64,000 nt of DNA. Origin: an uncultured Candidatus Saccharimonas sp. GTDB taxonomy: Bacteria > Patescibacteriota > Saccharimonadia > Saccharimonadales > Saccharimonadaceae. Where the stretch lies: contig CAUQWN010000001.1 of assembly GCA_963522115.1 (NCBI GenBank), positions 212,916-276,915 of the forward strand. Direction: 5' to 3'. This document shows, piece after piece, positions 690 through 64,000 of the stretch (positions within the stretch are counted from its first letter, which is position 1; every line of letters begins with the position of its first letter). The translations under genes were made by a program, and so were the position numbers. Below the pieces are notes generated by a model. That model searched no databases and had not been told where the DNA came from. It saw nothing but the letters and a program-made list of their open reading frames with translations.

Positions 690-767
690 CTTCCCTCCTT
701 ATTTTAACTTATGTTTATATTTTATCATAAACTTTTCGAAAATGTCAAAATCTGATACAATATAAAT

Positions 768-1034
768 ATGGCTTTATATGTAAAACAAGATGATAATCGA
801 ACTGAATTGCAAGAAAAGATTGCAGCAGAGCTTCGTGAAAAACAGATTAAAAACTCGCTCAAAGAGGGAGATGAAATTCCAAATAGTAAAGGCGAAATCG
901 TTCAGCCTGAAGATAGTGCATATCTTGAAGGAACAAAAGAAACCACAGGGCTAGCTTTTATATGGCTTTTGGTTTTTGCGGCAATTTTAGTGGCACTTGG
1001 GCTTTATATTTGGGTGGCATCACAGCGAGTTTAA
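768..1034 (+). CDS. Hypothetical protein with C-terminal transmembrane helix
   Basis: 88-aa ORF with a hydrophobic C-terminal segment; extended -10 (TGATACAAT) 6 nt before the ATG. Confidence 0.75.
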   Translation: MALYVKQDDNRTELQEKIAAELREKQIKNSLKEGDEIPNSKGEIVQPEDSAYLEGTKETTGLAFIWLLVFAAILVALGLYIWVASQRV

Positions 1035-1087
1035 TTTTTTTTAAAAATCGACAAAAAGATACTGTTATGGTATAATTAAAGATAATT

Positions 1088-2107
1088 ATGGAACAAATTC
1101 AACAGATTAGAAATGAACTTTTGGCGGAACTTCAGGTACTCGAAAACCCGAGCGATATTTTGAAATCGCCAAAAATTAAAGAACTTTATAAAATTATTCC
1201 AACTCTGCCGAATGAGCAAAAAGGTGAATTTGGCGCGAAAGTGAATGATTTAAAAAATGAAATTCAGGCTGAAGTTTCGAAAAAACTTGAAGAAAAAGAG
1301 AACGCAGAAGTTGAAGAAATTGATATTACCGCACCTTTCGCAGAAAGCTCTCGTGATAAAATTTCTCGAAAATCGCAACTTTTGAGCGCGAAAAATGGTT
1401 CAAAGCATCCGCTCCAAAAAGAGCTTGAAAAAGTGGTGGACATTTATACACGAATGGGCTTTGAAGCAGTAGAATCTCGACAGATCGATAACGATTGGAA
1501 TATGTTTGGCGCGTTAAATTTTCCTGAAAACCACCCAGCACGAGATGGCTACGATACTTTTCGAACTGAAGAAAACTTTATTCCGCCAGCGCACACCTCA
1601 ACAATGCAAAATCGTGTTTTGAGACATGGTAAAAAGCAACTTGAAGAAGAGGGTCAAATTGCGCATGTTTCTTATGGTAGAGTTTTTCGCAATGAAGACT
1701 TAGATGCTACTCATGAACATACTTTTTACCAATGTGAGGGCGTTTTTGTGAGTGAAGCAGCGAATCTCGCACAAATGCTTGGCACGCTTCATGCCTTTTT
1801 TGAAGAATATTATGGCCAAAAACTAGAAATTCGCACTCAGCCGGGCTATTTTCCGTTCACTGAGCCAAGTCTTGAATTTTTGATTGAGAAACCTGAGGCG
1901 CTTGGTGGCAAAAAAGGTGAATGGCTTGAGATGCTTGGCTGCGGGATAATTCACCCAAATGTTTTGGAAGCTGCCGGAATTGATAGTAAAAAATATCGTG
2001 GTTTTGCTTGGGGTGGCGGAATTGAACGTCTCGTAATGCTTAAATATGGAATTTCGGATATTCGTTATTTCGAAAGCGCAAAATTAGAATTTCTAAAGGA
2101 ATTTTAA
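1088..2107 (+). CDS. pheS: Phenylalanine--tRNA ligase alpha subunit
   Basis: Motifs HPARD, HTS, GRVFRNE, DATHEHTFYQCEG, YFPFTEPS, GFAWGGGIERLVML. Confidence 0.97.
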   Translation: MEQIQQIRNELLAELQVLENPSDILKSPKIKELYKIIPTLPNEQKGEFGAKVNDLKNEIQAEVSKKLEEKENAEVEEIDITAPFAESSRDKISRKSQLLSAKNGSKHPLQKELEKVVDIYTRMGFEAVESRQIDNDWNMFGALNFPENHPARDGYDTFRTEENFIPPAHTSTMQNRVLRHGKKQLEEEGQIAHVSYGRVFRNEDLDATHEHTFYQCEGVFVSEAANLAQMLGTLHAFFEEYYGQKLEIRTQPGYFPFTEPSLEFLIEKPEALGGKKGEWLEMLGCGIIHPNVLEAAGIDSKKYRGFAWGGGIERLVMLKYGISDIRYFESAKLEFLKEF

Positions 2108-2347
2108 ATGACCGAGCAAGAATGGAGAGAAATAGATAAAAAGCGATCTTTAGCGGGTTTAAAGGTTGCTTTGATATTTTTTGCCGCAGCCATTATATTT
2201 TTCGCCGGAGTTTCAGCCTTTACAGAAGAAGATACTCGTTGTGAGGATTTTAGTAGGGGCAGGCAACGTTTTTATTGTAAGATTTTCGAAAAACCTATTG
2301 CTGATATGATTAGAAATATTTTTGGATTAAGAAGGAGTGATAAATGA
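2108..2347 (+). CDS. Small hypothetical membrane protein between pheS and pheT
   Basis: 79-aa ORF starting directly after the pheS stop and overlapping the pheT start (ATGA); one TM helix and two Cys. Confidence 0.7.
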   Translation: MTEQEWREIDKKRSLAGLKVALIFFAAAIIFFAGVSAFTEEDTRCEDFSRGRQRFYCKIFEKPIADMIRNIFGLRRSDK

Positions 2348-4839
2348 TAATTTCAGTAAATTGGCTTAAAAAATTTGTTCCAGATTTGCCAGATATTGGT
2401 GAGCTTTCGAAATTGATTGGTGCAAGGCTGGTTGAAATTGAAAGTATTGAAAATTTGGGCGAAAAGTATGAAGATGTGATTATTGCTAAGGTTGTTTCTG
2501 CGCAGAAAGTTGAAAATTCAGATCATTTAAACCTATGCAAGATTGATGATGGTGGTGTAAGAAAAAATATTACTCGCGATGAAGACGGGTTTATTCAGGT
2601 GGTTTGTGGTGCGTCAAATGTGCGAGCTGGCATTTTTGTGGCTTGGCTTCCGCCGGAGTCAATTGTGCCAGAAACTTTTGGTGGTGATAACTTTAAGCTT
2701 GGTGTACGAAAACTAATGGGCTATATGAGCAACGGAATGATTGCAAGTCTTCGCGAGCTTGGTTTGGGTGAAGAACATGATGGTATTCTTGAAATTTCAC
2801 CAGAGGTTTTCGAAAACGGCGTTCAGGCTGGTGATTCTTTTGCGGATAAATTTGAATTAAATGATTTTTTGCTTGAAGTTGAAAATAAAAGCTTGACTCA
2901 TCGCCCAGATTGTTTTGGAATTGTTGGCTTTGCTCGTGAAGTTGCAGGAATTTTGGGGCAAAAATTTGTCGAGCCAGATTTTATAAGAGGCTTGAATTTT
3001 AAAGCTCAAAGCAATAAAACGGTTAAAGTTGAAATTCAAGATCCTGAAATTTGTGAACGTTACACGGCGGCAGTTTTTGATATCTCTGAAATTTTAAAAA
3101 ATCCAAACTTAACAATTGCAAAAACTTATCTTTTGCGTTCTGGAATGCGGCCAATTGATTCTATAACTGATTTAGCAAATGAACTTATGCTTGAAACTGG
3201 GCAACCGCTCCATACATTTGATTTTGATAAATTAGTAAAAATTAACGGTAGCGAAAACATCAAAATTACCGTTCGAAAAGCTTTCGAAAATGAAGAATTA
3301 GAGCTTTTAGATGGCAAAAAAATCAAAATGAACAACCAAGATATCGTGATTGCAATTGGTGAAAATGCTGAAACAGCCGTGGCACTTGCTGGCGCAATGG
3401 GTGGAGCTTCAACCGCAATTGATGAAAATACAACACGAATTTTAGTAGAAAGTGCTACATTTAATCTTTATAATTTGCGAAATACACAAATGCGTCATGG
3501 AATTTTCTCGGAGGCAATTACGCGCTTCACAAAAGGTGTTCCAGAAATGATATCGCGAAAAGTTCTTGATTTGTTTGGTGCGCGAATTTTGGAACTTGGC
3601 GGAAAACCTTTGAGTGAGGTTGTAGATTCAAATGGTGATTTTTATTACAATAAAACTGAAATTTCAGTTTCGAAAGATAAAATTAACCAAGTTTTGGGAA
3701 CAGATTTTTCGAACGAAGAAATTCGGCAAACTCTAGAAAATGTTGGAATTTTAGCAAAAAATGAAAATCCTGAAACTTTTATGATTCCATTTTGGCGAAA
3801 TGATCTACATATTGAGGAGGATTTAATTGAAGAAGTTGGGCGATTGAATGGTTATGATAATATTAAATTGCAACTGCCAAGTCGAACTTTTAAGGCGGTA
3901 AAAAAAGCAAAAATCGACTTGCTTCAATCCGAAATTCGTGATATTTTAGCAGCAAGCGGTGCAAATGAAGTTTTGACTTATAGTTTTGTTCACGGTGATT
4001 TGCTTGAAAAGGTTGGTCAAGGTCCACAAAACTCTTACAAGATTATCAATTCAATTTCGCCAGATTTACAATATTATCGCCAAACTTTAATGCCAAGTTT
4101 GCTTTCTAAAATTAGTCAAAATATTCGTGCAGGTTTTGGTGAATTTGCAATTTTCGAAATAAATAAAATCACTGAAAAATCACTCGGTTTGAATGATGAA
4201 AATGTGCCAGTTGAACAGAAGAAATTGGCGTTCGTTTATGCAAAAAATAATGGCGAAAATGCATTTTATGAAGCAAAGAATTATGCAGAGTTTCTATTTA
4301 AAAAGCTTGGTTTAAATGTAGAATTTGTAAAATTTGAAACTGAAAAATCACCACTTTCAACTGAATTTGAACCAAAACGTTCGGCCTTAATGCAAATTTC
4401 TAAAAATGGCAAAAAGATAATTTTAGGCGTGATTGGTGAGTTTAGAAAATCAGTTCAAAAAGCGCTAAAACTACCAGAATCAACTGCTGGATTTGAGCTC
4501 GATTTACAAATTTTACTTGAAAATATTGAAAATTCAAATGTGAAAATTAGGGATTTTTCGAAGTTCCAATCTGTTGAGCGCGATATTTCAATTAACGTTG
4601 AAGAAAATCGCAAATTTGCTGAAATTTTTAGTATTTTTGAGAATATTTCTGATGAATTTAGCAAAATTGATATTGAAACTTCACCAATTGATATTTTTAA
4701 TAATTGTGATGGCTCAAAAAATATTTCAATTCGATTTAAGATTACGCCTTTCGAAAAAACTTTGAACGGTGAAGAGATTCGGGAAATTATGCAAAAAATT
4801 GAAGAAAAAGCCATAAAAAATGGCGGAAAGATAATTTAG
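2344..4839 (+). CDS. pheT: Phenylalanine--tRNA ligase beta subunit
   Basis: MIISVNWLK N-terminus, tRNA-binding domain (QVVCGASN), RPDC, GQPLHTFD, RNDL..EEDLIEEVGR, C-terminal FDX-ACB (VERDIS). Confidence 0.97.
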   Translation: MIISVNWLKKFVPDLPDIGELSKLIGARLVEIESIENLGEKYEDVIIAKVVSAQKVENSDHLNLCKIDDGGVRKNITRDEDGFIQVVCGASNVRAGIFVAWLPPESIVPETFGGDNFKLGVRKLMGYMSNGMIASLRELGLGEEHDGILEISPEVFENGVQAGDSFADKFELNDFLLEVENKSLTHRPDCFGIVGFAREVAGILGQKFVEPDFIRGLNFKAQSNKTVKVEIQDPEICERYTAAVFDISEILKNPNLTIAKTYLLRSGMRPIDSITDLANELMLETGQPLHTFDFDKLVKINGSENIKITVRKAFENEELELLDGKKIKMNNQDIVIAIGENAETAVALAGAMGGASTAIDENTTRILVESATFNLYNLRNTQMRHGIFSEAITRFTKGVPEMISRKVLDLFGARILELGGKPLSEVVDSNGDFYYNKTEISVSKDKINQVLGTDFSNEEIRQTLENVGILAKNENPETFMIPFWRNDLHIEEDLIEEVGRLNGYDNIKLQLPSRTFKAVKKAKIDLLQSEIRDILAASGANEVLTYSFVHGDLLEKVGQGPQNSYKIINSISPDLQYYRQTLMPSLLSKISQNIRAGFGEFAIFEINKITEKSLGLNDENVPVEQKKLAFVYAKNNGENAFYEAKNYAEFLFKKLGLNVEFVKFETEKSPLSTEFEPKRSALMQISKNGKKIILGVIGEFRKSVQKALKLPESTAGFELDLQILLENIENSNVKIRDFSKFQSVERDISINVEENRKFAEIFSIFENISDEFSKIDIETSPIDIFNNCDGSKNISIRFKITPFEKTLNGEEIREIMQKIEEKAIKNGGKII

Positions 4840-4847
4840 GAGAAAAG

Positions 4848-5528
4848 ATGGCAACAAAGAAAAATTCATTACAAACTGGTACACCAGCTTGGCAGAGATA
4901 TTCAATTTGGGTGATTTTAATTTTAACGATCGTTTCAACTGTGGCACTTTATGTTTCTTCATTCTTACAAACTGAGAGTAATTCAGAAACACAAAAAAAA
5001 CAATCGCAAGTTTTGAAAAAATACCAAGATTACAGAAAAAAGGTTGAAGAGCAGGCGAAAGAACTTTCGGCCAAATATTACGACAGTTTTAAGGAATATG
5101 AAAAAGCTCCAGTTGCATTTAATGCTGCGAGCGTAAAAGAGCTTACGAAAAAAGATTTAAAAGAGGGTGACGGTGAAGAATTTACAGATTCAACAACGAA
5201 ATTTCAGGCTTATTATATTGGCTGGAAACCTGATGGAACAGTTTTTGATGGAAGCTTTGAAAATGGTAGATTAAAATCGCCAGTTGTTTTTCGTAAAGAG
5301 GGTAAAAAATGGGGCTTAATTGAGGGCTGGAGTGAAGGTCTAAAAGGAATGAAAGTTGGCGGAATTCGTGAATTGTCTATTCCTGCGGATAAGGCTTATG
5401 GTGCTCAGGGCTCAGTTAATCAGGAAGATTCTTCAAAAACTATTGGCCCAAATACACCTTTGAAATTTATCGTAATGTTAATTCCTGAATTCCAAGAAAT
5501 TCCACAGCCAAGTCTTGAGGAAAACTAA
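4848..5528 (+). CDS. Membrane-anchored FKBP-type peptidyl-prolyl isomerase
   Basis: N-terminal TM helix, then FKBP motifs YIGW..DGTVFD, LIEGWSEGLKGMKVGGIRELSIPADKAYG, IGPNTPLKF. Confidence 0.92.
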   Translation: MATKKNSLQTGTPAWQRYSIWVILILTIVSTVALYVSSFLQTESNSETQKKQSQVLKKYQDYRKKVEEQAKELSAKYYDSFKEYEKAPVAFNAASVKELTKKDLKEGDGEEFTDSTTKFQAYYIGWKPDGTVFDGSFENGRLKSPVVFRKEGKKWGLIEGWSEGLKGMKVGGIRELSIPADKAYGAQGSVNQEDSSKTIGPNTPLKFIVMLIPEFQEIPQPSLEEN

Positions 5529-5529
5529 A

Positions 5530-6471
5530 ATGACTGATTTGGTAATTATTGGTTCAGGGCCATCTGCGTTGAGTGCGGCAATTTACGCTGCACGAGATGG
5601 CTTGAGTGTGCGAGTTTTCGAAAAAGCGGCTTTTGGTGGAATTGCAACAACTTCAGATTTAATTGAAAACTATCCAGGCTTTGATGAAGGAATTTCTGGG
5701 CTTGAGCTTTCAAAAAAAATGCGAATCCAAGCTGAAAAATTTGGTGCAAAATTTGATTATGGCGAAGTTTTAGGTTTTGAAAATCTTGGTAATTTTGTGC
5801 GATTAGATATTGATGGTGAAAAATTTGATTCAAAAACAGTTTTGATTGCAACGGGAAATTCATATAGAATGCTTGGCCTGCCACGAGAAGAAGAGTTTTT
5901 TGGGCGAGGTGTTCATACCTGTGCAACTTGCGATGGCCCATTCTATGCTGGAAAGGATTTGATTGCAGTTGGTGGCGGTAATTCTGCGGTAACTGAGGCC
6001 CTATTCTTGAGCCGATTTTCAAAAGTTAAGCTTTTAGTTCGAGGCGAAATTTCGGCGCAAGCTGTCTTGCAAGAGCGACTTTTTGAAGCAGTTAAATCTG
6101 GCAAAATTGAGTTATTTTTAAAAACTGAAATTGAGGAATTTCTTTTCGAAAAGGCTGATTTTGGTGAAAAAATTATTGGTACTCGTATAAAACAGCAAAC
6201 TAAAGAAGGTGAAAAAACTTTTGAAATTAAAGCTGCTGCAATTTTTGAATTTATTGGATTAATTCCGAATTCTGGTTTTGCAAAAAAATCTGGTGTTGAA
6301 GTTAATAACTATGGTGAGATTGTTGTAAATAACAATTTCGAAACAAATATTCCAAGAGTTTATGCTTCTGGCGATATAATTGAAAATGCACAAAAACAGA
6401 TTGTGGTAGCTGCAGCAACCGGTGCTCAAGCGGCAATAAAAATCTCAGAATTTTTACACAATGAAAAATAG
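5530..6471 (+). CDS. trxB: Thioredoxin-disulfide reductase
   Basis: GSGPSA FAD motif, IENYPG, CATCDG redox motif, GGGNSA NADPH motif. ATG at 5530 preferred over the TTG at 5515. Confidence 0.92.
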   Translation: MTDLVIIGSGPSALSAAIYAARDGLSVRVFEKAAFGGIATTSDLIENYPGFDEGISGLELSKKMRIQAEKFGAKFDYGEVLGFENLGNFVRLDIDGEKFDSKTVLIATGNSYRMLGLPREEEFFGRGVHTCATCDGPFYAGKDLIAVGGGNSAVTEALFLSRFSKVKLLVRGEISAQAVLQERLFEAVKSGKIELFLKTEIEEFLFEKADFGEKIIGTRIKQQTKEGEKTFEIKAAAIFEFIGLIPNSGFAKKSGVEVNNYGEIVVNNNFETNIPRVYASGDIIENAQKQIVVAAATGAQAAIKISEFLHNEK

Positions 6472-6540
6472 GGTTATATTGCCCTATTTTAGTTTTTGAA
6501 AAAGTGAAAAATATCCTCAAGCGTGATATAATGGAATATA

Positions 6541-9123
6541 ATGAAAAAGTTAGTGATTATTGACGGAAAAAGCGTATTTTATCGGGGCTACTACGCTATG
6601 GGTAATTTGAGTCTTGAAGACGGAACGCCCACAGGTGGTGTTTATGGTTTTGCCAGTTTAGCTTTTGAGGTTATTCGAAAATTAAAACCAGATTATGTGG
6701 TTGTGGCTTGGGATAAAAAAGGAACTTCAACTGCAAAAAGAAGTGCGATTTATCCTGAGTATAAAGCTGGGCGAAAAAAAGCGCCAGATGATTTCTATGA
6801 ACAGATTCCACTTTTAAAGGACTTTTTGAAGACTTTAGGTTGGCCTCTTTTCGAAACCGACGGCTATGAGGCTGATGATATTTTGGGGACTTTAGCGGTT
6901 CAGGCAAATAAGCTCGGAGTTGAAGCAAATTTGATTACTTCTGATCTTGATATGTTGCAATTGATTGATGAAAATACTAAAGTTTTTGCAATGAAACGTG
7001 GATTTTCGGATATCGAAGAATTTGATCTTGAATATTTTGAGAATAAATATGGATTAAAACAATCTCAATTTTTAGATTTAAAAGCACTTCAAGGTGATTC
7101 TAGCGACAATATTCCAGGTGTGCCAGGGATTGGTCCAAAAACTGCTACGCAACTTTTGCAAGAGTTTTTTACGCTTGAGGGAATTTATGAAAATCTTGAA
7201 AATATCAAACCGGCTTGGCGAAAAAAACTTGAAGCTGGTAAAGATTCAGCGTTTATGAGTAAAAAAATTGCTGAAATTTTTCTTGATGCACCGGTTGAGC
7301 TTAACTTTGAAGATGCCGATATTCGTAACTTTAATTATGAAGAAGTTTTAAAAATGCTTCGAAAGCTTGAATTTAATTCTTTGCTCCGAAAAATTCCAAA
7401 AGAGATGAAAACTGGCTCAGAGGATTTTGAAACAAAAAATGAAAACCAAATTGGGCTTTTTGAAGAAGTTCTAGAATCTTCTGGGATCAATACTTTGCCG
7501 GAAATTTCTGCTGAAAAGTTTTTCGAAAAACCACAAGATTTGGTTTTCTTTGATTTTGATACTCAAAAATTAAAAATTTTAGTTTCGAATTTTGAAAATA
7601 TTGCAGAATTTAATTTTATGGAATTTTCGAAATTTGCTGATTTCTTCAAAAATGTAAAAACAGTTTTCTTTAATGCAAAAGAAGCATTTCATAAAATTTT
7701 TAATGCTGGTATTGATTTTGAAGATTGGGGTGAAATTTATGATATTGAGCAATTGGAATTTTTGTTAAATGCTTTAATCCGCGATAAAAGTTTGAGTGGA
7801 ATTTATGGCGAAAAAATAGATGAAGATGATTCGAAAGTTCGAATTTCAGCAATGCGGATTATTTTTGAGCGTCAACAAAAAAAGCTTGAAGATTTGCCAA
7901 GAATTCGTGAAATTGCTGAAAAGTTAGATTTCCCAATGAGCTTGGTTCTATTTAAAATGGAAAAAGCTGGTGTTGAAATTTGCCCAGAGATTTTTGCTAA
8001 AATGAGCGAGGAATTTGCTGGTGAAATTTCAAAGATTGAAAAGGAGATTTTTGAAATTGCTGGGCGAGAATTTAATGTTGCTAGTCCATTGCAGCTTTCG
8101 AAAGTTCTTTTTGAAGATTTGGGCCTACCGACAAAAGGTATTAAAAAATCAAAAAATGGCTTTTCGACAGGGCAAAAAGAGCTTAATAAATTACGAGAAT
8201 ATAGCCCAATTATTGAAAAAATTGAGCAATTCCGTGAATTTTCGAAATTAAAAAGTACCTATGTTGATGCTTTGCCAAAATTAGCAGATGAAAAGAATCG
8301 GATTCATAGCAATTTTGCGCAAGATGTAACAACAACGGGGCGGCTTTCTTCAAGTAATCCTAATTTGCAAAATATACCGATTCGTTCCGAGCTTGGGCGG
8401 CGTATTCGTGAGGGCTTTGTGGCGAAAAAAGGAAATTTACTAGTTTCAGCAGATTATTCGCAGTTTGAATTGAGATTGGCGGCAGTTTTGGCAAACGACA
8501 AGCCTTTGATTGAGACTTTTGAGAAAGATTTAGATATTCACGCAAAGACTGCGAGCGAGGTTTTTGGCGTTCCGATTGATGAGGTTTCGAAAGAGCAACG
8601 ACGCGTTGCTAAAATTATCAATTTTAGCGTGCTTTATGGCGTTGGGGCTCATAATCTTTCTGGCACGATTGGAGTTGGTTTTTATGAGGCGAAAAAATAT
8701 ATTGAAGAGTATTTTAATGCGCACAAACCGATTCGTGAGCTTATGGATAATACATTGAAAAAAGCTCAGGATGAAGGTTTTGTAGAGACATTTTTTGGGC
8801 GAAGGCGACCAATGCCAGATATAAAATCGAGTAATTTTATGATTCGCGAGATGGCAAAGCGAGCAGCTCAAAATATGCCAATTCAAGGCACTGAGGCAGA
8901 TTTAATGAAGCGAGCGATGTTGGCTGTTGATGAAAAAATTGTAAAAGCTGGGCTTGGTGAACAAATTTTGCAAATTCATGATTCAATTTTGGTGGAAGTT
9001 CCAGCTGAAAATACTGAAAATGTGGCAGAAATTTTAAAGCGAGAAATGGAGAACATAGCTCCAGAATTAAATGTTAAATTAAAGGTTGAAGTTTCTATTG
9101 GCAAAGATTGGTTGAATATGTAA
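6541..9123 (+). CDS. polA: DNA polymerase I
   Basis: 5'-3' exonuclease (YKAGR, EADD, GDSSDNIPGV) and family A polymerase motifs (TGRLSS.NPNLQNIP, DYSQFELR, AKIINF, QIHD); the central proofreading region looks degenerate. Confidence 0.97.
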   Translation: MKKLVIIDGKSVFYRGYYAMGNLSLEDGTPTGGVYGFASLAFEVIRKLKPDYVVVAWDKKGTSTAKRSAIYPEYKAGRKKAPDDFYEQIPLLKDFLKTLGWPLFETDGYEADDILGTLAVQANKLGVEANLITSDLDMLQLIDENTKVFAMKRGFSDIEEFDLEYFENKYGLKQSQFLDLKALQGDSSDNIPGVPGIGPKTATQLLQEFFTLEGIYENLENIKPAWRKKLEAGKDSAFMSKKIAEIFLDAPVELNFEDADIRNFNYEEVLKMLRKLEFNSLLRKIPKEMKTGSEDFETKNENQIGLFEEVLESSGINTLPEISAEKFFEKPQDLVFFDFDTQKLKILVSNFENIAEFNFMEFSKFADFFKNVKTVFFNAKEAFHKIFNAGIDFEDWGEIYDIEQLEFLLNALIRDKSLSGIYGEKIDEDDSKVRISAMRIIFERQQKKLEDLPRIREIAEKLDFPMSLVLFKMEKAGVEICPEIFAKMSEEFAGEISKIEKEIFEIAGREFNVASPLQLSKVLFEDLGLPTKGIKKSKNGFSTGQKELNKLREYSPIIEKIEQFREFSKLKSTYVDALPKLADEKNRIHSNFAQDVTTTGRLSSSNPNLQNIPIRSELGRRIREGFVAKKGNLLVSADYSQFELRLAAVLANDKPLIETFEKDLDIHAKTASEVFGVPIDEVSKEQRRVAKIINFSVLYGVGAHNLSGTIGVGFYEAKKYIEEYFNAHKPIRELMDNTLKKAQDEGFVETFFGRRRPMPDIKSSNFMIREMAKRAAQNMPIQGTEADLMKRAMLAVDEKIVKAGLGEQILQIHDSILVEVPAENTENVAEILKREMENIAPELNVKLKVEVSIGKDWLNM

Positions 9124-9228
9124 TAATATATATTGTAAAATATATTTTTGCGGTGCAGTCTTGATTTTTAAAACGCTTTTGTTTATAATTATTTTAGGAA
9201 ATATTTTTAAGGTGGAGGGACTTAGATA

Positions 9229-9651
9229 ATGAAACATAAAATATTATTTGGTGTAGTTTTAGCTATTGCTGTTTTGAGCGCAGGGCTAAACTTAGTGCAA
9301 GTAATTAAAAATAAAAATGATATTGCTGCAATGAAAAACCCTGTTGGTTCGGTTTGTGGGGACGATATTATTAATAAATATAACAACATTAAAGGCAAAA
9401 AAGAAGAATACGCTAAAAACGCGAAAGCTTTAGGCGATGAGATTTCGAAAAAGGCAGGAAACGAGAAAGATTCCAACTGTGTTATAATGCGGCTTTTTAT
9501 TGGAACGGAAAATCAGGAACAAACATTTAAAAATCTTGAAGAAATGGTCAATAAGGGTCAAAACCCAAGCTTAAAAATTAGGGGTGTTGATTATATTGAA
9601 CATCTTAAGCCCTCAAGTTTAAAATATGAAAATGTTGGAGATTTATTTTAA
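9229..9651 (+). CDS. Hypothetical secreted or membrane-anchored protein
   Basis: 140 aa with an N-terminal hydrophobic signal and two Cys; GGAGG SD; stop directly abuts the next ATG. Confidence 0.8.
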   Translation: MKHKILFGVVLAIAVLSAGLNLVQVIKNKNDIAAMKNPVGSVCGDDIINKYNNIKGKKEEYAKNAKALGDEISKKAGNEKDSNCVIMRLFIGTENQEQTFKNLEEMVNKGQNPSLKIRGVDYIEHLKPSSLKYENVGDLF

Positions 9652-12132: not shown

Positions 12133-12134
12133 AT

Positions 12135-20056: not shown

Positions 20057-21586
20057 TTATGAAAATAAAGTTTCAATTTTTGCGCCGAGTGAATTTAATC
20101 TTTCTGCAAAGTCCTCATAGCCGCGATTGATGTTGTAAACATCTCGCAAGGTTGAGACTCCTGGTGCGGCGAGCATCGCAATTAAAACTACAACACTTGG
20201 GCGAAGGGCACTTGGCGCAATAACATCTGCAGGTTTCCATTTTGTTGGGCCAGAAATGTAAACACGATGTGGGTCAACAAGTTCAATTTTAGCGTTTAAT
20301 TTTGAAAGCTCAGTGAAGTAAATTGCACGGTTTTCGTAGCTCCAGTCATGAATCAAGGTTCGACCTTCTGCGACAGTTGCAATTAATCCAAGAAAAGGTA
20401 AATTGTCCATATTTATACCAGGAAATGGTAGTGCGTGAATTTTATCTTTCGCAGCATGTAGTTTTGATTTTTTAACTTTAATATCCACAAGGCGCGTTTT
20501 TTTATTTTTCGAAAGATATTCGGGGCTGATTTCGAAATTTGCACCCATTTGTTCGAGGGTTGCGAGTTCAAGTTCGTTAAATTCGATTGGCGCACGTTTG
20601 ATAGTGATTTCAGAATTTGTAACCAGCGCAACCGCCACGAAAGTTAAAGATTCAATAGGGTCTTCGCTTACATAATATTCAACATCTTTCTCAATTTTTG
20701 TTAATCCATGAACTTTTAGGGTTGTTGTCCCAATTCCTTCAATTTTAATGCCAAGCTCTTCAAGAAAGAAGCATAAATCTTGCACCATATAGTTTGGGCT
20801 AGCGTTTCGAATCGTAATTTCTTGACCAGAAAGCGCTGCGGCCATAATTATATTTTCGGTTGTTGTATCTCCGCGCTCGGTCAAAAGTATTGGCTTCTCA
20901 ACTTTTTTTGGTTTGTTCGAAACTTTGTAAAAATCAGTTTGTGCTGTAACATTTGCACCAAAATACTTTAATCCAGAAAGGTGAGGTTCAACTGTGCGTG
21001 TTCCTAAATTGCACCCACCAGAAAAAGGTATTTCGAAGTCTGAATATTGGTGAAGAAGTGGACCAAGAAACATTAGAATACTGCGTGTTCTTTTAGCAGA
21101 TTCAATATTCATATTTTCGAAAGATAATTCTTTAGGAGGTGTAATTTCAAGATCGTTTTCATCATTTAGCCATTTAGTTTTTACGCCAATCGAATTTAAA
21201 ACTTCAATAATTCGATTAACTTCTTCAATTCGAGCAACGCGGCGAAGAATCGTTTTTCCTTTATTTAAAAGGGAAGCGCAAAGTAGGGCAACGGCGGCAT
21301 TTTTTGATGTTTTAACTTCAATTTCACCAGAAAGTTCGCGTCCGCCATGAACACGAAAATTGGTTTTCTTATTTGAATTAACAGATATAATTTCGCTCGA
21401 AAGTTCTTCTGAAATTCTTGCAAGCATTTCAATAGTTATATTTTGCTTACCACTTTCAATTCGGTTAATTGCACTTTGTGAGGTGCCAATTTTTTCGGCA
21501 AGCTCAACTTGAGTTAAATTCTTGTGCAGGCGGGATTCTTGAATAAGCTTCCCGATTTTTTCTAAATAGGCTTGTTCTTCGTTCAT
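20057..21586 (-). CDS. murA: UDP-N-acetylglucosamine 1-carboxyvinyltransferase fused to an N-terminal XRE (HTH_3) domain
   Basis: Residues ~10-65 (LTQVELAEKIGTSQSAINRIESG) form an XRE HTH; followed by SKNAAV, GGCNLGTR (catalytic Cys retained), TENIIMAA, YENR, INRGYE. Confidence 0.93.
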   Translation of the reverse strand: MNEEQAYLEKIGKLIQESRLHKNLTQVELAEKIGTSQSAINRIESGKQNITIEMLARISEELSSEIISVNSNKKTNFRVHGGRELSGEIEVKTSKNAAVALLCASLLNKGKTILRRVARIEEVNRIIEVLNSIGVKTKWLNDENDLEITPPKELSFENMNIESAKRTRSILMFLGPLLHQYSDFEIPFSGGCNLGTRTVEPHLSGLKYFGANVTAQTDFYKVSNKPKKVEKPILLTERGDTTTENIIMAAALSGQEITIRNASPNYMVQDLCFFLEELGIKIEGIGTTTLKVHGLTKIEKDVEYYVSEDPIESLTFVAVALVTNSEITIKRAPIEFNELELATLEQMGANFEISPEYLSKNKKTRLVDIKVKKSKLHAAKDKIHALPFPGINMDNLPFLGLIATVAEGRTLIHDWSYENRAIYFTELSKLNAKIELVDPHRVYISGPTKWKPADVIAPSALRPSVVVLIAMLAAPGVSTLRDVYNINRGYEDFAERLNSLGAKIETLFS

Positions 21587-21734
21587 AAAATAATTATATC
21601 ACTTATGGTATAATAAAAACAAGTTTTCTAAGATTTTTTTATTTTTTAAAAATATGATATACTTAAAAATATGATATAGCGACGGTTTTTATATTTTTAG
21701 TTTCGAAAAGTTTAATTTTTAAGGAGAGTTTTTT

Positions 21735-38595: not shown

Positions 38596-38717
38596 AATTT
38601 TGTGTTTAAGATATTGAACCACTTTTCGAAAATTGAAGAGTGGTTTCATTTATTATAAAAAAGGAAAAGCCAGTGTGTACTGACTTTCGAAAATAATTAA
38701 GTGTAGATATAGCAGTT

Positions 38718-45448: not shown

Positions 45449-45638
45449 CTTATATGTAAATTAATATAAAAATGATGTTTTGTGCATTTTTATATTAAGG
45501 CACCTACCAGAAAATACTTTATAGCATTCGTTTAACTCTATAATATTAATTAAAAAGGTCGACATTATGCTAATTTTCGAAAAGAAAGGGTATTATTAAG
45601 GTAGTGCATCACAGTAATGTGTTTGCGGGAGAAAGATT

Positions 45639-53406: not shown

Positions 53407-53459
53407 TGCTATTGTTTATTTTTTAAAAAATATGTGGTATAATCATTTTATATCACTTT

Positions 53460-53533
53460 GGCGCCTTGGCGGAGTGGTTACGCAGCGGTCTGCAAAACCG
53501 TTTACACCGGTTCAAATCCGGTAGGTGCCTCCA
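53460..53533 (+). tRNA. tRNA-Cys(GCA)
   Basis: GGCGCCT...GCGGT-CT-GCA-AA-ACCGT...AGGTGCC-T-CCA. Confidence 0.95.
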
Positions 53534-53557
53534 AAATATTTAAGTAAAGGAAACCAT

Positions 53558-53869: not shown

Positions 53870-53926
53870 GTTTATAACACGCCTTGACTTTTGCAGTTAA
53901 GGCGTGTAAAATATAAATATAAATAT

Positions 53927-54014
53927 GCGCGAGTGGCGGAATTGGTAGACGCGAGGGACTTAAAATCCCTTGACCTAAACAGTCGTGCGGGTTCGATTCC
54001 CGCCTCGCGCACCA
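53927..54014 (+). tRNA. tRNA-Leu(UAA)
   Basis: GCGCGAG...AGGGA-CT-TAA-AA-TCCCT, long variable arm, CTCGCGC-A-CCA. Confidence 0.95.
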
Positions 54015-54044
54015 AATTTAACAATAGTAGGAGAGTATAATAAA

Positions 54045-54608
54045 ATGACAATTGCAATTATTGTAATTATTGCTGTTCTTGTCCTTGTTGGGCTTTTTGT
54101 TTGGAGCCAATACAACGCACTTGTGCGGCTTAATGAAAGAGTTGAAGAAGCTTGGAGTGATATCGCTGTTCAGCTAAAATACAGAGCAGATTTGATCCCT
54201 AATCTTGTTGAAACTGTAAAAGGTTATGCAACTCATGAGAAAGAAGTTTTCGAAAATGTAAGTAGTGCACGAGCTGGATTAATAGGTGCTGGAAACAATG
54301 TTTCTGATGCTGCTAAAGCTGAGGGTGAACTTTCACAGGCGCTCGGCCGTCTGTTTGCTGTTGCCGAAAATTACCCTGAACTAAAGGCTAATGAGGGCTT
54401 TATACGTTTTCAACAACAACAGCAAGAAATCGAAGATAAAATTCAAGGTGCACGCCGATTTTATAATGGTGGTGTTCGAGACCTTAATATTAAGATTAAA
54501 GTATTCCCAACTAATATTTTTGCTAAAAAATTAGGTTTTGAAAAGAGGGAATTCTTCGAAGTAGAAGATAGAAAAGTAGTCGAATCTGCGCCTCAAGTAA
54601 AATTCTAA
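54045..54608 (+). CDS. lemA: LemA family protein
   Basis: YNALV, AWSDI, DLIPNLVETVKGYA, AENYPELKA, RRFYN; SD AGGAG before the ATG at 54045. Confidence 0.95.
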   Translation: MTIAIIVIIAVLVLVGLFVWSQYNALVRLNERVEEAWSDIAVQLKYRADLIPNLVETVKGYATHEKEVFENVSSARAGLIGAGNNVSDAAKAEGELSQALGRLFAVAENYPELKANEGFIRFQQQQQEIEDKIQGARRFYNGGVRDLNIKIKVFPTNIFAKKLGFEKREFFEVEDRKVVESAPQVKF

Positions 54609-54634
54609 TTTATTTTTTAGAGGTTTTATTAAAT

Positions 54635-55506
54635 ATGTATAGCTCAATTTCTCAGAATAAGCGTAATACTGTGATTATTTTCTCATTATTTATTGCGATT
54701 ATTTCTGGGATTGGGCTATATTTTTCTTACATCTATAACGATTTAATAATTTTTATTTTTACGCTAATTTTTACTATTTTTTATGCATTATTTCAGTATA
54801 AGATTTCGACAGCCATTACTTTAAAAATGAATGGTGCTGAGCCGATCTCAAAAAAAGATGCTCCTGAATTTTATTCAATAGTTGAATCATTATCTATTAC
54901 TGCTGGCCTACCAATGCCAAAGCTTTATATCATCAATGATTCTTCGATGAATGCTTTTGCAGCCGGAACTGATCCTGAGAATTCCGTAATCTGTGCAACA
55001 ACAGGGCTTCTTGAGAATATGGATAAGGTTGAAATTGAAGGAGTGATGGCTCATGAAATTTCACATATTAAGAATTATGATATTCGAGTCTCAATAACAG
55101 CAGTTGCTTTAACTGCTGTTATTGGGGTGCTTTCCGATATTGTTTTAAGGTTTATTTTTCTAAATGACGACGATGAGGATTCGAAAAACCCAATCGCTTT
55201 AATCTTGGGACTATTTTTTGTTTTGATTTCGCCACTTTTAGCTACAATAACAAGGCTTGCAATTTCTCGTCAGCGTGAATTTTTAGCTGACGCAACCGCT
55301 GTTTCATTAACTAGATATCCAGATGGCTTAATCAGTGCTCTTGAAAAGTTAAAAAATAATAAGCCTCTTGAAAGACAAAACTCAACAACGGCAAGCTTAT
55401 TTATTTCCAATCCTATGAAACAGGGCTTTTTTCAGAAATTATTTTCAACACATCCACCTTTAGATGACAGGATTAATAGATTGAAAGAAAATAGTGCGAG
55501 GTTTTA

Positions 55507-55507
<1 letters not shown>
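54635..55507 (+). CDS. htpX: M48 family zinc metalloprotease HtpX
   Basis: NAFA, AHEISH, SRQREFLADA, FSTHPP; follows lemA. Confidence 0.93.
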
Positions 55508-59057
<3,550 letters not shown>

Positions 59058-59100
59058 TTTTTTGATTTTTTATACTATTTTTGGTATAATTTAAAATAGT

Positions 59101-61542
59101 ATGAAAAGATATAATCCGATTGAAATTGAAGAAAAATGGCAAAAAAAATGGGATGAATCAAAGCTTTATGAGGTTGAAGCGGATTCTTCGAAACAGAAAA
59201 TGTATATTTCGGGAATGTTTCCATATCCAAGTGGGGCAGGACTTCACACTGGGCATGCAAGGAGTTATACGATTGTTGATTCGATCGCGCGTTTTTATCG
59301 CCAGCAGGGCAAAAATGTTTTAAACCCAATTGGTTGGGATACTTTTGGCTTGCCAGCAGAAAATTATGCAATTAAAACTGGGATATCTCCACAGGAAGCT
59401 ACAAAAACAAATATTGCAAATTTCAAAAAACAATTTAAACGACTTGGAATTTCAATCGATTGGTCGCGAGAAATTAACACTTCAAATCCAGAATATTACA
59501 AATGGACACAGTGGATTTTTCGTGAGCTCTATAAAAAAGGCCTAGCTTATCGAAAAGAGAGCTACCAGTGGTGGTGTGATAATGACAAAACAGTTCTTGC
59601 CAATGAACAGGTTGAAAATGGCCGATGCTGGCGCTGTGGCGAAGAAGTTTCAAAAAAACAAATGACTCAGTGGTTCTTTAAAATTACTGCATATGCTGAC
59701 GAACTTTTGGCTGATATTGATAATCTTGATTGGCCTGAAAAAATCAAAACAATGCAGCGAAACTGGATTGGTAAATCTGAAGGTGCTGAGGTGGAATTCA
59801 AGATTGCCGATGGTGAAGCTAAAGGTGAAAAAATTAAAGTTTTTACAACTCGACCAGATACAATTTTCGGTGTGACATTTTTAACTATTGCGCCAGAACA
59901 TGAATTGCTCGAAAAACTCTCTACTGATTTAACTAGAGAAAAACTTGAAGAATATAAGAAAAAATCACTTAAAAAATCTGAAATTGAGCGCCAAGAAAAT
60001 AAAGAAAAGACAGGAATTTTTACTGGAAGTTATGCAATAAATCCAGCGAATGGTAAGAAAATCCCAATTTGGGTGAGTGATTATGTGCTTGGAGGCTATA
60101 GTGAAGGGGCTGTTATGGCGGTTCCTGCTCATGATGAGCGAGATTTTGAATTTGCTAAAAAATTTGATTTGGATATTATAAAAGTTGTTGAGAAGCCTGA
60201 GAGCATGGCGGATGATGATTCTTGCTATCATGGAGAAGGAGTTATGGTTAACTCTGGTGAATTTAACGGTCAAAAATCAGAGGATGTTCGCGAACAGATT
60301 TTAGGCTGGCTTGAAGAATCTGGATTTGGTCGCTCGAAAACTACATATAAAATGCGAGATTGGTTGATTTCTCGGCAGCGCTATTGGGGTTGCCCAATTC
60401 CAATTGCTTATGATAAAGATGGGAAAGAGCACTTAATTCCCGAAGAACAATTGCCTGTGATGCTTCCAACTTTGAGTGATTTTAAGCCTGATGATTCTGG
60501 AAAGTCGGCCCTTGCTAAGAGTAAAGAATTCATTACAGTTGAAATTAATGGCGAAAAAATGACTCGTGAAACCGATACGATGGACGGTTACGCATGCTCA
60601 AGCTGGTATCTTTTGCGATATGCTGACCCTCGAAATTCTAAGCAAGCTTGGGATTCTGAGCTTGTAAATTACTGGGCACCGGTTGATTATTATGTTGGTG
60701 GCGACCACGCGGTTGCGCATTTACTGTATATTCGTTTTTGGACTCATGTTTTTAGAGATTTGGGACTAACTAATTTTGCTGAACCAGTTAAAAAACTCCT
60801 TTATCACGGATATATCAATGCGGAGGATGGTTCGAAAATGAGTAAATCAAAGGGGAATACTATTGATCCGCTTGAAGTCATCGACCAAGGATATGGTGCA
60901 GATTCACTTCGAACTTATGAAATGTTTATTGCTCCATATGAAGTTGATGCTTCTTGGGATTCACGAGGTATAGCTGGAGTTTATCGTTTTCTAAATCGTG
61001 TTTGGGTTTTGATTCAAGAATTTATTGAATCTGAAAAATCTGCTGAAAATCTTTCGAATTTTGCTGAAATCCAAAAAATTCAGCATAAAACCATCAAAAA
61101 AGTTACTGAAGATTTTCACCGCGAAAGCCTGAATACTGCGGTTGCTGCTCTGATGGAATTTGTAAATGATCTGTATAAATTGAAACTTGAAGGTTTTTCG
61201 AACGATTGGCGATTTGTTTTAGAAGATTTACTTAAAATGCTCGTTCCATTTGCGCCACATATTTCGAGCGAACTCTGGCAGCAGCTTGGAAATGATGACT
61301 TTATTGAAAAGTCTGGCTGGCCAAAATGGAATGAAGAGCTTTTGAAAACTGATGAAATTCAAATTATTGTTCAAGTTAATGGAAAGCTCCGCGGGAAAAT
61401 TAAAGTTTCGGCAAACTCTGAAAAGGATGAAATTCTTGCTGCTGCAAAAGCAGAAGATAACGTTTCGAAATTCTTGCAAGACAAGGAGATTTTGAAAGAA
61501 ATTTTTGTTCCGAATAAATTAATTAACTTCGTTGTTAAATAA
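59101..61542 (+). CDS. leuS: Leucine--tRNA ligase
   Basis: MFPYPSG.GLHTGH, GLPAEN, FTTRPDT, AVPAHDERD, SRQRYWG, KMSKS. Confidence 0.97.
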   Translation: MKRYNPIEIEEKWQKKWDESKLYEVEADSSKQKMYISGMFPYPSGAGLHTGHARSYTIVDSIARFYRQQGKNVLNPIGWDTFGLPAENYAIKTGISPQEATKTNIANFKKQFKRLGISIDWSREINTSNPEYYKWTQWIFRELYKKGLAYRKESYQWWCDNDKTVLANEQVENGRCWRCGEEVSKKQMTQWFFKITAYADELLADIDNLDWPEKIKTMQRNWIGKSEGAEVEFKIADGEAKGEKIKVFTTRPDTIFGVTFLTIAPEHELLEKLSTDLTREKLEEYKKKSLKKSEIERQENKEKTGIFTGSYAINPANGKKIPIWVSDYVLGGYSEGAVMAVPAHDERDFEFAKKFDLDIIKVVEKPESMADDDSCYHGEGVMVNSGEFNGQKSEDVREQILGWLEESGFGRSKTTYKMRDWLISRQRYWGCPIPIAYDKDGKEHLIPEEQLPVMLPTLSDFKPDDSGKSALAKSKEFITVEINGEKMTRETDTMDGYACSSWYLLRYADPRNSKQAWDSELVNYWAPVDYYVGGDHAVAHLLYIRFWTHVFRDLGLTNFAEPVKKLLYHGYINAEDGSKMSKSKGNTIDPLEVIDQGYGADSLRTYEMFIAPYEVDASWDSRGIAGVYRFLNRVWVLIQEFIESEKSAENLSNFAEIQKIQHKTIKKVTEDFHRESLNTAVAALMEFVNDLYKLKLEGFSNDWRFVLEDLLKMLVPFAPHISSELWQQLGNDDFIEKSGWPKWNEELLKTDEIQIIVQVNGKLRGKIKVSANSEKDEILAAAKAEDNVSKFLQDKEILKEIFVPNKLINFVVK

Positions 61543-61570
61543 TAAAATGGAGGTTTATTCCTCCATTTTA

Positions 61571-62122
61571 TTATTTTTGCTGAAAATCTTCTCTGTTTGC
61601 ATCGACTGCAACCCAGCCATCTTTATCAACATTTAAATTAATATTGGTTTTTTCACCTGTTGAGGTTGTTTCGAAATTTTCAATTCTAGTGATTAATTTT
61701 GGATTGTTTCCATCTTGTAGATAAACATCGCCCTTAGCAGTAAAATCCCTGTCTGCATTCATGATGCCAATTGCTGAGTGATTTGATTTGCTGAAAGTGT
61801 AATTTTCAGGGTTTTCGTAATATTCGCCAGTTGAGCTTCTTATGGCGTCTCCTTTTTGTAGATGGATTACGCCGCCATCATCTGAAATTTTTTTAAGTTC
61901 TGAAAAATCTATTTCAGAGTTGTCTAAACCTTCAGTTTGACTTTTTTGGAAAATCTCTGGTGGGTGATTTTCCTGATAGTTTTTATAAACATCGTGGCCA
62001 AACCAACCACCAAGCGCTCCAGCGGTCATTGCTAAAGCACCAAATTGTTTTAGTTTCTTTTTACTAATTTTTACTATTTCTTTGTTTTGAATTTGATTAT
62101 TTTTGTTTTGATATTTTTCCAT
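61571..62122 (-). CDS. Orphan membrane-anchored or secreted protein
   Basis: 183 aa with a basic N-terminus and hydrophobic segment; promoter TTGACT-17-TATAAT (62132-62160); shares a terminator at about 61541-61573. Confidence 0.75.
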   Translation of the reverse strand: MEKYQNKNNQIQNKEIVKISKKKLKQFGALAMTAGALGGWFGHDVYKNYQENHPPEIFQKSQTEGLDNSEIDFSELKKISDDGGVIHLQKGDAIRSSTGEYYENPENYTFSKSNHSAIGIMNADRDFTAKGDVYLQDGNNPKLITRIENFETTSTGEKTNINLNVDKDGWVAVDANREDFQQK

Positions 62123-62249
62123 AACAACTTTATTATAGCATAAAAGAAATAAAAAGTCAATATATTATACATAAAAAGCTTGCTTTATCTTTAAAATTAA
62201 GGTATAATTGATGTTGAAGGAAAATAATAAACCTAAGGAGAAACTTTAA

Positions 62250-62429
62250 ATGGCACAGCCAAAGAAACAGAGTAGTCCTCGAAAGACTGGTTTGCGACGC
62301 AGCCACTTGCGATTGGATTTAGCTCGTCGAGTTAATAAAAAATCACCAGTGAAAGTTTACACAACTAAAAAACAATCTGGTAAAGCTCTAAACAAGCAAC
62401 TCGAAGAAAACAAAACGCTAGCTGCTTAA
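62250..62429 (+). CDS. rpmF: 50S ribosomal protein L32 (Cys-free form)
   Basis: MAQPKKQSSPRKTGLRRSHLRL...; AAGGAG SD; 59 aa; upstream of nusB and rnc; below the ORF-track cutoff. Confidence 0.9.
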   Translation: MAQPKKQSSPRKTGLRRSHLRLDLARRVNKKSPVKVYTTKKQSGKALNKQLEENKTLAA

Positions 62430-62501
62430 TTTGCTGGCGTTTTAATTTTCATTTGACAAAAAATAATAATATTTTAATATAGGAAAGAACCTTACGTAAA
62501 A

Positions 62502-62957
62502 ATGGCATCAAATAGACATTTAGGAAGGATTGTTGTTCTTCAAACACTTTATGAATATGAATTTCGCTCTCAGGCACAAGATAAAACTGTTGACTTGGCT
62601 GAGATTATTTTTCGAAATATGAAGCAATATGAAGAAGCGATTGGAGATAAGCAATTCGTTCAAGATTTATTAAACGGGATTATTGAAAGACAGGTTGAAC
62701 TGGATACGAAACTTCAGCCAATGGCACCGGAATGGCCAATTTCACAGATTGCGCGAATTGACCGTAATGTTTTAAGGATGGGGCTTTATGAATTGCTTTA
62801 TTCTCGAGAAACAGTTCCGCCAAAAGTGGCTATAAATGAAGCAGTTGAGCTTGCAAAAGCGTTTGGTTCCGATAATTCAAGTAAGTTTATTAACGGCGTA
62901 TTAGGAACGGCGTATAAACTTTTTGTGGAGGAACAAAATGGCGAACAAGAAGGTTGA
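62502..62957 (+). CDS. nusB: Transcription antitermination factor NusB
   Basis: [36 protein letters not shown]. Confidence 0.96.
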
Positions 62958-63435
62958 ACATTTTCGAAAATATTTTCATAGAACACGCAGATCTTCAATT
63001 CAGGAAATCGTTCGTGAACCAACCGCTGGTGGCGTAATTTTTCGCCGTAATCAAAAAAATGAAGTTGAAATTTTGCTGATTCAAGATTCGAAAGATCGTT
63101 GGACAATCCCAAAAGGTCATATCGAAGAAGGAGAAACAGCTCAAGAAACTGCTAAGCGTGAAATTGGGGAAGAAGCTGGTCTTAATGATGTAAAAATTAT
63201 TGGCTGGCTTGGTAAAATCAATTTTCGATATAGGCGAATTGACAGGCTTGTTTTAATGACGACTCAAGTTTTTTTGGTGAAAGCGCTTGGTGATACTGAT
63301 GCAATTAAAAAAGAAGATTGGATGAATGGTATTAGATGGTTTAGTTTTTCTGATGCGTTGGATGAGATTGAATATGAAGATATCGGTAAGCTAATTTTGC
63401 TTGCGATGAAAAAAATTAGACAGGAGAACTTATAA
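62938..63435 (+). CDS. NUDIX hydrolase
   Basis: Nudix box [22 protein letters not shown]. Confidence 0.92.
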
Positions 63436-64000
63436 TGAGTGGAATTTTATTGGCGCCCTATCATGAATGGGCGAAAGAGAAACTTGGTTATGATTTCGAA
63501 AATATTAATTTATTAGTGACCGCATTGACACATCGAAGCTATTTAAATGAACATAAAAAATCGGCAAGTGAACATAATGAACGACTTGAGTTTTTGGGTG
63601 ATGCGGTTTTAGAGCTCGTTACTACTGATTTTCTATTTTCAAACTATGATAAGCCTGAGGGAATTTTAACAGCTTGGCGTTCAGCATTAGTTAGAACTGA
63701 AAGTATTGGTGCGGCTGGCGAAAGACTCGGCTATGAAAAACTAATTCGGATGAGCCGTGGTGAAAAACAAGGTTCTGCAAGGGCTCGCCAGCAGATTTTG
63801 GCAAATGCTTTCGAAGCGACTACGGGTGCTATTTATCTTGATAAGGGTTATGAAGCTGCAAAAAAATACATCACAGATAACATTTTGAGTACTCTGCCAC
63901 AAATTCTAGAGGAAGAATCTTGGCGTGACCCAAAGAGTTATTTACAAGAGATTTCACAAGCAAGAGATGGTTTTACGCCAATTTATAAGGTTCTTAAAGA
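63435..64000 (+). CDS. rnc: Ribonuclease III (3' end runs off the window)
   Basis: Manual translation: ALTHRSY, HNERLEFLGDAVLEL, ANAFEA..GAIYLD, DPKSYLQE. Confidence 0.96.
   Translation, partial: MSGILLAPYHEWAKEKLGYDFENINLLVTALTHRSYLNEHKKSASEHNERLEFLGDAVLELVTTDFLFSNYDKPEGILTAWRSALVRTESIGAAGERLGYEKLIRMSRGEKQGSARARQQILANAFEATTGAIYLDKGYEAAKKYITDNILSTLPQILEEESWRDPKSYLQEISQARDGFTPIYKVLK

Follow-up and report, generated by a model that had tools for sequence, protein, structure and literature searches.

The function of highly iterated palindromes (HIPs) has been an open question for three decades. In published descriptions, a HIP is the most over-represented palindromic oligomer of its genome, at ~1,000-2,000 copies per Mb, the words that replace HIP1 have a GC content of 75% or more, and a matching methyltransferase is present in each cyanobacterial genome with a HIP (PMC4390886). 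Here we describe a comparable word, the palindrome TTCGAA, in a 64,000-nucleotide stretch of DNA (the window) from an uncultured Candidatus Saccharimonas sp. (contig CAUQWN010000001.1, positions 212,916 to 276,915) and in the genome to which the window belongs. The best form of the word is its 8-mer extension TTTCGAAA. Like cyanobacterial HIP1 and the alternative HIPs (PMC4390886, PMC5861425), it is a palindromic top oligomer at ~1,300 per Mb, occurs in all frames and in intergenic DNA, is over-conserved and has a proposed role in the nucleoid. Unlike HIPs, TTTCGAAA is AT-rich (25% GC) rather than GC-rich (PMC4390886), no cognate methyltransferase was found for TTCGAA, the fold enrichment is lower (6x at Markov order 2, by a different method), sites are phased at 10.4 bp instead of the reported 10-90 kb period (PMC4390886, PMC5861425), and TTCGAA is confined to part of one genus. 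Since no cognate methyltransferase was found, the word is not HIP1 proper, and, since it is not GC-rich either, we do not file it as a HIP. A previous reading of the window's sequence alone (the sequence-only reading) had proposed an undescribed HIP1-like motif system; this stands as regards a palindromic, over-conserved, lineage-specific word present in all frames, whereas the link to a methyltransferase was searched for and not found. Literature searches aimed at TTCGAA or at Saccharibacteria palindromes gave no report of the word, with supplements and most subscription journals outside their scope.

The window contains 179 TTCGAA against 21.3 expected from base composition (8.4x), making TTCGAA its top hexamer, and 79 of these are TTTCGAAA. 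The sites are split 45/42/70 over the three coding frames, with 22 in intergenic DNA. Our recount agrees exactly with the 28 TTCGAA previously counted in the first 9.1 kb, and all 11 non-coding sites cited earlier are present between open reading frames (ORFs), the one given as 21703 lying at 21702. Rather than forming a local array, the window sites sample a feature of the whole genome. The window's genome (G000; 694 kb, 35% GC, 7 contigs, 99% complete, with housekeeping genes) contains 2,020 TTCGAA, about one per 340 bases, at a density of 1.9-3.2 per kb on all 7 contigs. TTCGAA is the top hexamer of G000 at Markov orders 0-3 (z 164, 95, 57 and 40; ~6x at order 2), while at order 4 it reaches 1.15x and is not the top word because 5-mers absorb the signal. 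TTTCGAAA, with 896 copies in 0.694 Mb (~1,290 per Mb, within the range of HIPs), is the top 8-mer, and the core is preceded by T and followed by A at 65% of TTCGAA sites. The single-mismatch neighbours of TTCGAA are mostly at or below expectation.

The enrichment survives synonymous shuffling within genes (20 runs, 661 genes from our own gene calls). The three frames hold 487/492/806 TTCGAA, compared with 216/187/223 after shuffling, corresponding to excesses of 2.26x, 2.63x and 3.62x. In the intergenic DNA of G000, where there are 234 TTCGAA in 109 kb, the word is likewise the top hexamer at orders 0-3. To the sequence-only reading, codon or amino-acid preference alone had seemed insufficient, and it had named loss under codon- and dicodon-preserving shuffles together with intergenic absence as grounds for abandoning its view; the excess of 2.3-3.6x in all three frames bears out the former, and the enrichment neither disappears under synonymous shuffling nor is missing from intergenic DNA. 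A shuffle that strictly preserves dicodons would hold the frame-0 word in place by design. The density is even along genes and on both replichores, on either side of the GC-skew switch, and a palindrome of this kind lacks the polarity of Chi or KOPS sites. The word is enriched ~3x in core genes and 1.8x in prophage genes, and core spacing is slightly even (coefficient of variation (CV) 0.85).

We determined the distribution of the word in 61 genomes, 35 from the genus and 26 from other genera, and in a separate order-wide sample of 301. Counts of TTTCGAAA divide the genus into 28 high genomes (268-1,187; carriers), three residual genomes (163-191; G001, G024 and G029) and four low genomes (14-19), and the genomes of other genera have 1-36 each. 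Only two members of the order-wide sample, both of the genus, are high, and the remaining 299 have at most 56, a result that stands also without the unpublished G282 and G326. TTCGAA itself numbers 990-2,667 in carriers, 515-610 in residual genomes and 96-173 in low genomes, and the share of TTCGAA in 8-mer form is 0.31 in residual genomes and 0.11-0.15 in low genomes. The distant carrier G021 (41% GC, 99% complete) has the same top palindrome as G000. The non-carrier G009, of similar base composition, under-uses TTCGAA (observed/expected (O/E) 0.62), and no substitute palindrome was found in it. In a quick polA tree, the residual clade is nested among carriers, as is G009, whose sequence is half-length; a 24-gene quartet prefers G009 outside the carriers (resampling estimated log-likelihood (RELL) 0.92), rejects G009 with G021 (approximately unbiased (AU) test 0.01-0.02) and does not reject G009 with G000; and split RpoC matches place G009 with most carriers. 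Read from these placements, the history of the word is one gain with one or two losses. RpoC is also a conflicting phylogenetic character, being ~55 residues shorter in most carriers and G009 than in G021, G015 and outgroups. The word arose inside one genus that includes carriers, residual genomes and non-carriers, which makes its origin and decay traceable.

The word is real, lineage-specific and actively maintained. In a trio of genomes at ~94% identity (G000, G012 and G005; 236 genes, 239 kb), synonymous losses number 136 against 239 expected (0.57) and synonymous gains 66 against 27.5 (2.4x) when motif sites are excluded from the control. When motif sites are kept in the control, losses are 135 against 179 (O/E 0.75, 95% confidence interval (CI) 0.63-0.90) and gains 66 against 35 (O/E 1.89, CI 1.47-2.37). 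TTCGAA is thus, like a HIP, conserved beyond neutral expectation (loss O/E 0.57-0.75). The loss and gain O/E of control palindromes are 0.83/1.4 for TTGCAA and 1.05/1.07 for AAGCTT, and TTCGAA ranks 1 of 1,504 hexamers for gain. For low loss it ranks 4 of 1,328, and two of the words ahead of it overlap with it. Losses are reduced at all six positions (20 against 45 expected at the non-CG positions), indicating that the whole word is protected, not the C alone. Furthermore, 54 of the 66 gains are T>C or A>G changes at the central CG, and alleles that complete the motif have a mean frequency of 0.61 (35 variable sites) compared with 0.42 at 583 other CpG-making sites (8-14 genomes, p 1.7e-4).

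Over longer time, the word has changed the proteome. In 408 equal-length orthologs, G000 exceeds G009 in the peptides FE (719 vs 361), FEN (86 vs 21), FSK (107 vs 37) and ISK (185 vs 81), while the reversed peptides EF and KS are near expectation. The doubling of FE and SK matches that of the peptides encoded by uptake sequences in Haemophilus and Neisseria (PMC2817400).

The sites also tend to be in phase with the DNA helix. In a scan of pair distances restricted to periods of 5-20 bp, TTCGAA in G000 gives a peak at 10.3-10.4 bp, 3.8x the mean, compared with 11.0-11.2 bp for the general A-tract period. For distances of 20-300 bp, none of 500 jitter runs attained the peak within the helix band and 1 did so in any band; for 20-200 bp, the corresponding numbers were 3 and 17 of 500. 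A protein-preserving null reached it in 1 of 300 runs. The distant G021 has a 10.3-10.4 bp peak too (3.0x the mean; 4.6x for TCGA), and the partial genome G005 has it in 2 of 4 distance ranges. TTCGAA also favours flanks with AA/TT steps phased at ~10.4 bp. At 4,159 recodable positions, with amino acids fixed, the fraction realised as TTCGAA rises from 37% with out-of-phase flanks to 51% with in-phase flanks (z 6.7), and three control palindromes show no flank-phase response (z -0.6 to 0.3). Relative to TTTGAA/TTCAAA, the phase excess is greatest within the first helical turn, and the arms extend to ~39 bp. This excess is present in G000 and G021 and is not seen in G009, which offers 95 sites only and little power. 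Thus, the unit is a dyad with phased arms.

Dyad-plus-phased-arm sites are known for DNA-bending proteins such as IHF/HU, gyrase and histones. TTCGAA resembles such sites in its two-fold centre and in A/T flanks with a period of ~10.4 bp over 3-4 turns; it differs in being a fixed word, hyper-abundant genome-wide, in cells where we found no histone or classical HU. Nucleosomal DNA has a 10-bp AA/TT phasing (PMC2817485), with CG out of phase with the A/T steps, whereas here CG is in phase with them, and a BI/BII equilibrium has been described for the CpG step in a TTCGAA-type context (a title cited in PMC2817485). The histone fold gave no match over the cut-off in any of 5 genomes, and the only HU-type gene found is HU-HIG. 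It occurs in 22 of 61 genomes, in up to 3 copies, is patchy within the genus and was not detected beyond it. HU-HIG was rejected as the reader of the word, being present in the low genomes G007 and G015 and not found in the high genomes G010, G013, G016, G017 and G033.

We regard it as an even call whether TTCGAA is an architectural site under selection, recognised by a DNA-bending protein of two-fold symmetry. TTCGAA would be the two-fold centre of the binding site for an abundant, putative protein, and ~40 bp of DNA to either side would be bent or wrapped by it; weak selection per site would fix the word wherever the code allows; and the function would be to compact the chromosome or to handle supercoils in cells that gave no classical HU or histone match. 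We chose this explanation because no other covers protection of the whole word, the skew in allele frequency and the phased arms at once, and because the searches for a histone or classical HU gave none. Of the four functions offered by the sequence-only reading, a nucleoid-linked one gains support from the helical phasing; a polar, Chi-like role misfits a palindrome. The word also bears on DNA packing in ultra-small Patescibacteria for which searches return neither a classical HU nor a histone.

The word comes with one short-listed gene as well as with a helical-phase signature. Among 30 differential genes, defined as G000 genes with a match in G021 and a weak or no match in G009, one encodes a basic protein of 206 aa (net charge +21, pI 9.9) that is present in 28 of 28 genomes with at least 268 TTTCGAAA and in 0 of 33 others. 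In a profile search of the 301 order-wide genomes, the protein was detected in two, each of them a carrier; among non-carrier or residual genomes, it was detected in 0 of 9 at E 0.1. The gene would have been gained with the word, and G001, G024 and G029, which lack the gene, have residual word counts. It lies at different loci, sometimes in 2-3 copies, and its neighbours across genomes are uvrA, gap, iscS or dsbA (names by sequence reading). The family is small, with 11 matches and 19 representatives below 1e-10. Its predicted model is confident (pLDDT 92), and DUF483-containing clusters are among its best matches (TM 0.49-0.56, feature score 0.9). In an LGYP-like motif, and perhaps in predicted fold, the candidate resembles DUF483/DUF2023 (PG1857, PDB 2GUK) and uncharacterised Bacillus phage proteins (phiAGATE, Grass and G gp108); it is unlike them in having no Pfam match, 11-18% identity and an extra C-terminal part. 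No function for DUF483/DUF2023 or the Bacillus phage relatives was found in the literature searched, and a search of PHROGs gave nothing below E 0.004. The protein is likely phage-derived and gained together with the word. Taken on its own, it is the most likely, putative reader of TTCGAA, a tentative assignment; it is a lead, not an identification. The fuller proposal, that a domesticated, phage-derived DUF483-like protein is a putative sequence-specific chromatin protein, that the genome was rewritten around TTCGAA and phased A/T arms, and that the mark decayed upon gene loss, is doubtful. If true, TTCGAA would be a HIP without a methylase whose reader is identified, the DUF483/DUF2023 superfamily would receive its first function, and thousands of codons and amino acids would have been rewritten within one genus.

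Several observations weigh against an architectural site or against this candidate. The phasing is modest overall, and several distance ranges were scanned; it is weak in the partial genome G012 (290 kb); recodable positions, taken as a pool, already show a periodicity (3.1 vs 3.9); and the phase of neighbouring sites adds nothing once flanks are counted (z 0.7). In the trio, no non-synonymous bias is seen (18 vs 20 losses, 2 vs 3 gains), nor a gain bias at the outer T/A of the 8-mer (2 vs 4). Losses exceed gains 2:1 (136 vs 66) where control transitions are near balance (2,812 vs 3,286), which fits purifying selection, with selection or drive on young variants, or else a declining motif. As for the candidate, 9 of the 30 differential genes were profiled, and the other 21 include about a dozen phage genes. 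The match between gene and word rests on about one gain and one loss, with a second loss hinted at by polA and RpoC, and the profile of a TMEM175 channel is similar across the 8 genomes in which it was checked, which means that common descent by itself can yield a gene-word match. The candidate matches no Pfam family at E 1; the best solved-structure match of its model is the uncharacterised 2GUK (Z 7.9, rmsd 3.3, 107 aligned), its Alba, SepF and R3H matches (Z 4-5) are at background level, and Foldseek gave no PDB match at E 0.001. Phage Grass, source of a distant relative, was examined over 50 of its 157 kb and shows no iterated palindrome there, and flank preference does not track protein subtype in the sisters G032 and G008 (8-mer share 0.31 vs 0.33).

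Other differential genes were tested on 5 genomes. The P-loop protein of the window was rejected as reader (2 of 5, missing in G013), as was the L084 protein (1 of 5). The DUF2207, FemAB and L070 proteins and a membrane protein were rejected with presence in 5 of 5 each, and TMEM175 (3 of 5) was read as a clade marker. The TMEM175-family potassium channel adjoins rpsG and appears to be a gain of the carrier clade.

Known uptake sequences are longer, non-palindromic 9-10-mers, often lying as inverted pairs in terminators, which counts against an uptake drive, in which biased natural transformation favours fragments with TTCGAA and no site confers a benefit. In Campylobacter, RAATTY/CtsM uptake is methylation-dependent and needs an orphan adenine methyltransferase; TTCGAA resembles RAATTY as a short, AT-rich, over-represented palindrome in a competent bacterium, and differs in that no methyltransferase common to carriers was found. 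An uptake drive would also predict the raised gain, the lowered loss, the frequency skew and perhaps the slightly even core spacing (CV 0.85). Saccharibacteria are naturally competent (10.1101/2024.11.25.624915), and ComEC is present in 17 of 17 genomes, but in carriers and non-carriers alike, and no competence gene is among the profiled differential genes. With the uptake sequences of Pasteurellaceae and Neisseriaceae (PMC2817400), the word shares a frequency of about one per kb, peptide doubling, a competent host group and scarcity in recently acquired DNA (0.35 TTCGAA per kb in inovirus-like cassettes, 0.8 in the C3 prophage), although one prophage region is nearly host-like at 2.5 per kb. 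Unlike them, it is a palindromic 6-8-mer, unpaired in terminators, and its 10.4-bp phased A/T arms would have no obvious reason under a drive, which would account for everything else. We consider such a drive unlikely. If the word affects uptake, it is relevant to the design of constructs for transforming Saccharibacteria.

A context-dependent mutation or repair bias, in which a factor converts near-matches to TTCGAA and shields the word without any function, is quite improbable. It has a precedent in Elhai's methyl-directed repair model for HIP1 (PMC4390886), and it would suit both the concentration of gains at the central CG and the even spread along genes and both replichores. However, losses are lowered at all six positions, motif alleles are skewed to high frequency, equilibrium predicts equal fluxes rather than 136 losses and 66 gains, the PF00145 search returned no m5C methyltransferase that could supply a Vsr-type pathway, and the dependence on flank phase is unexplained.

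TTCGAA is a known restriction-modification target. A modification-linked HIP, whose modifier would have escaped detection through divergence or a gap in the assembly, or would be none other than the candidate protein, nevertheless appears very unlikely. The 7 contigs of G000 leave room for such a gap, and a methyltransferase would be expected from the cyanobacterial precedent (PMC4390886). The sequence-only reading had called for a search for a cognate enzyme, and the search of G000 and G021 (PF00145, PF01555 and motif scans) returned none. G000 has no PF00145 match and one sub-threshold PF01555 match, an RNA-type methyltransferase adjoining rpl27 (label by sequence reading); Dam/D12 and MT-A70 types were covered in G000 by motif scans only, which a very divergent enzyme could escape. 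Two amino-methyltransferase-like (restriction-type) ORFs of G000 were ruled out by their absence from the carrier G021, and G000 has no ORF with the motifs that would correspond to the methyltransferase-like ORFs of G021, so that two hidden Markov model families and motif scans gave no methyltransferase common to these two carriers, both 99% complete. The candidate protein has no S-adenosylmethionine-binding fold in its predicted model.

A codon-pair, peptide or RNA-loop preference could draw on the tetraloop words TTCG and GAAA, on a few intergenic sites located in hairpins and on the frequency of FE and SK. It is nevertheless largely refuted and scarcely credible, given that the enrichment persists in every frame after shuffling as well as between genes, that reversed EF and KS are not enriched, and that G009 under-uses TTCGAA at similar base composition. 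Moreover, of 235 intergenic sites in the whole genome, 1 lies in a perfect stem of at least 8 bp, on which the terminator-loop explanation was rejected.

Table. Positions of TTCGAA sites and associated features, in window coordinates unless a contig is given.
Feature	Position	Strand	Remark
179 dispersed TTCGAA palindromes (79 TTTCGAAA)	735..63815	.	~2.8 per kb
Intergenic TTCGAA	735..740	.	upstream of pheS
polA	6541..9123	+	tree marker; example of coding DNA with the word
Intergenic TTCGAA	13392..13397	.	between convergent genes
MurA	20057-21586		N-terminal XRE-type helix-turn-helix
Intergenic TTCGAA	21702..21707	.	between murA and glyA
Intergenic TTCGAA	31599..31604	.	overlaps a short hairpin at its loop, a rare position for the word
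Two intergenic TTCGAA, 61 bp apart	38625..38691	.	upstream of alaS
lysM-TM7 RNA motif	45502-45631		upstream of peptidoglycan hydrolase; marks the host as TM7
TTCGAA inside lysM-TM7 RNA motif	45576..45581	.	the one site within the motif
Intergenic TTCGAA	52034..52039	.	upstream of hisS
P-loop-like orphan, 157 aa	58584-59057		between ligA and leuS
Candidate reader gene, locus L234	G000 C2:33674-34294	+	outside the window
TMEM175-family potassium channel	G000 C2:40019-40735; L124:10970-11668
Inovirus-like cassettes	G000 C2 ~124,600-136,000		two to three in tandem, 29% GC
Tailed-prophage regions (two)	G000 C3:2,600-30,000 and C5		0.8 vs 1.5-2.5 TTCGAA per kb
HU-HIG	G000 C6:30738-31115 and relatives

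The inovirus-like (filamentous phage) cassettes, so labelled from a reading of their proteins, are nearly TTCGAA-free and have related cassettes in G021 (L080) and G009 (L048). The TTCGAA density of a prophage is possibly a clock for its residence in the host. GATC, CATG, GTAC, GGCC and CCGG are under-represented in G000 (O/E 0.57-0.65), as is typical of restriction-site avoidance. In the low clade (G003, G007 and G015), TCTAGA is the top palindrome, with 34 sites in the 56 kb examined (O/E 2.3), possibly a second, weaker iterated word. The P-loop-like orphan is 94% identical in G001, compared with 69% for polA, which suggests a recent transfer within the genus.

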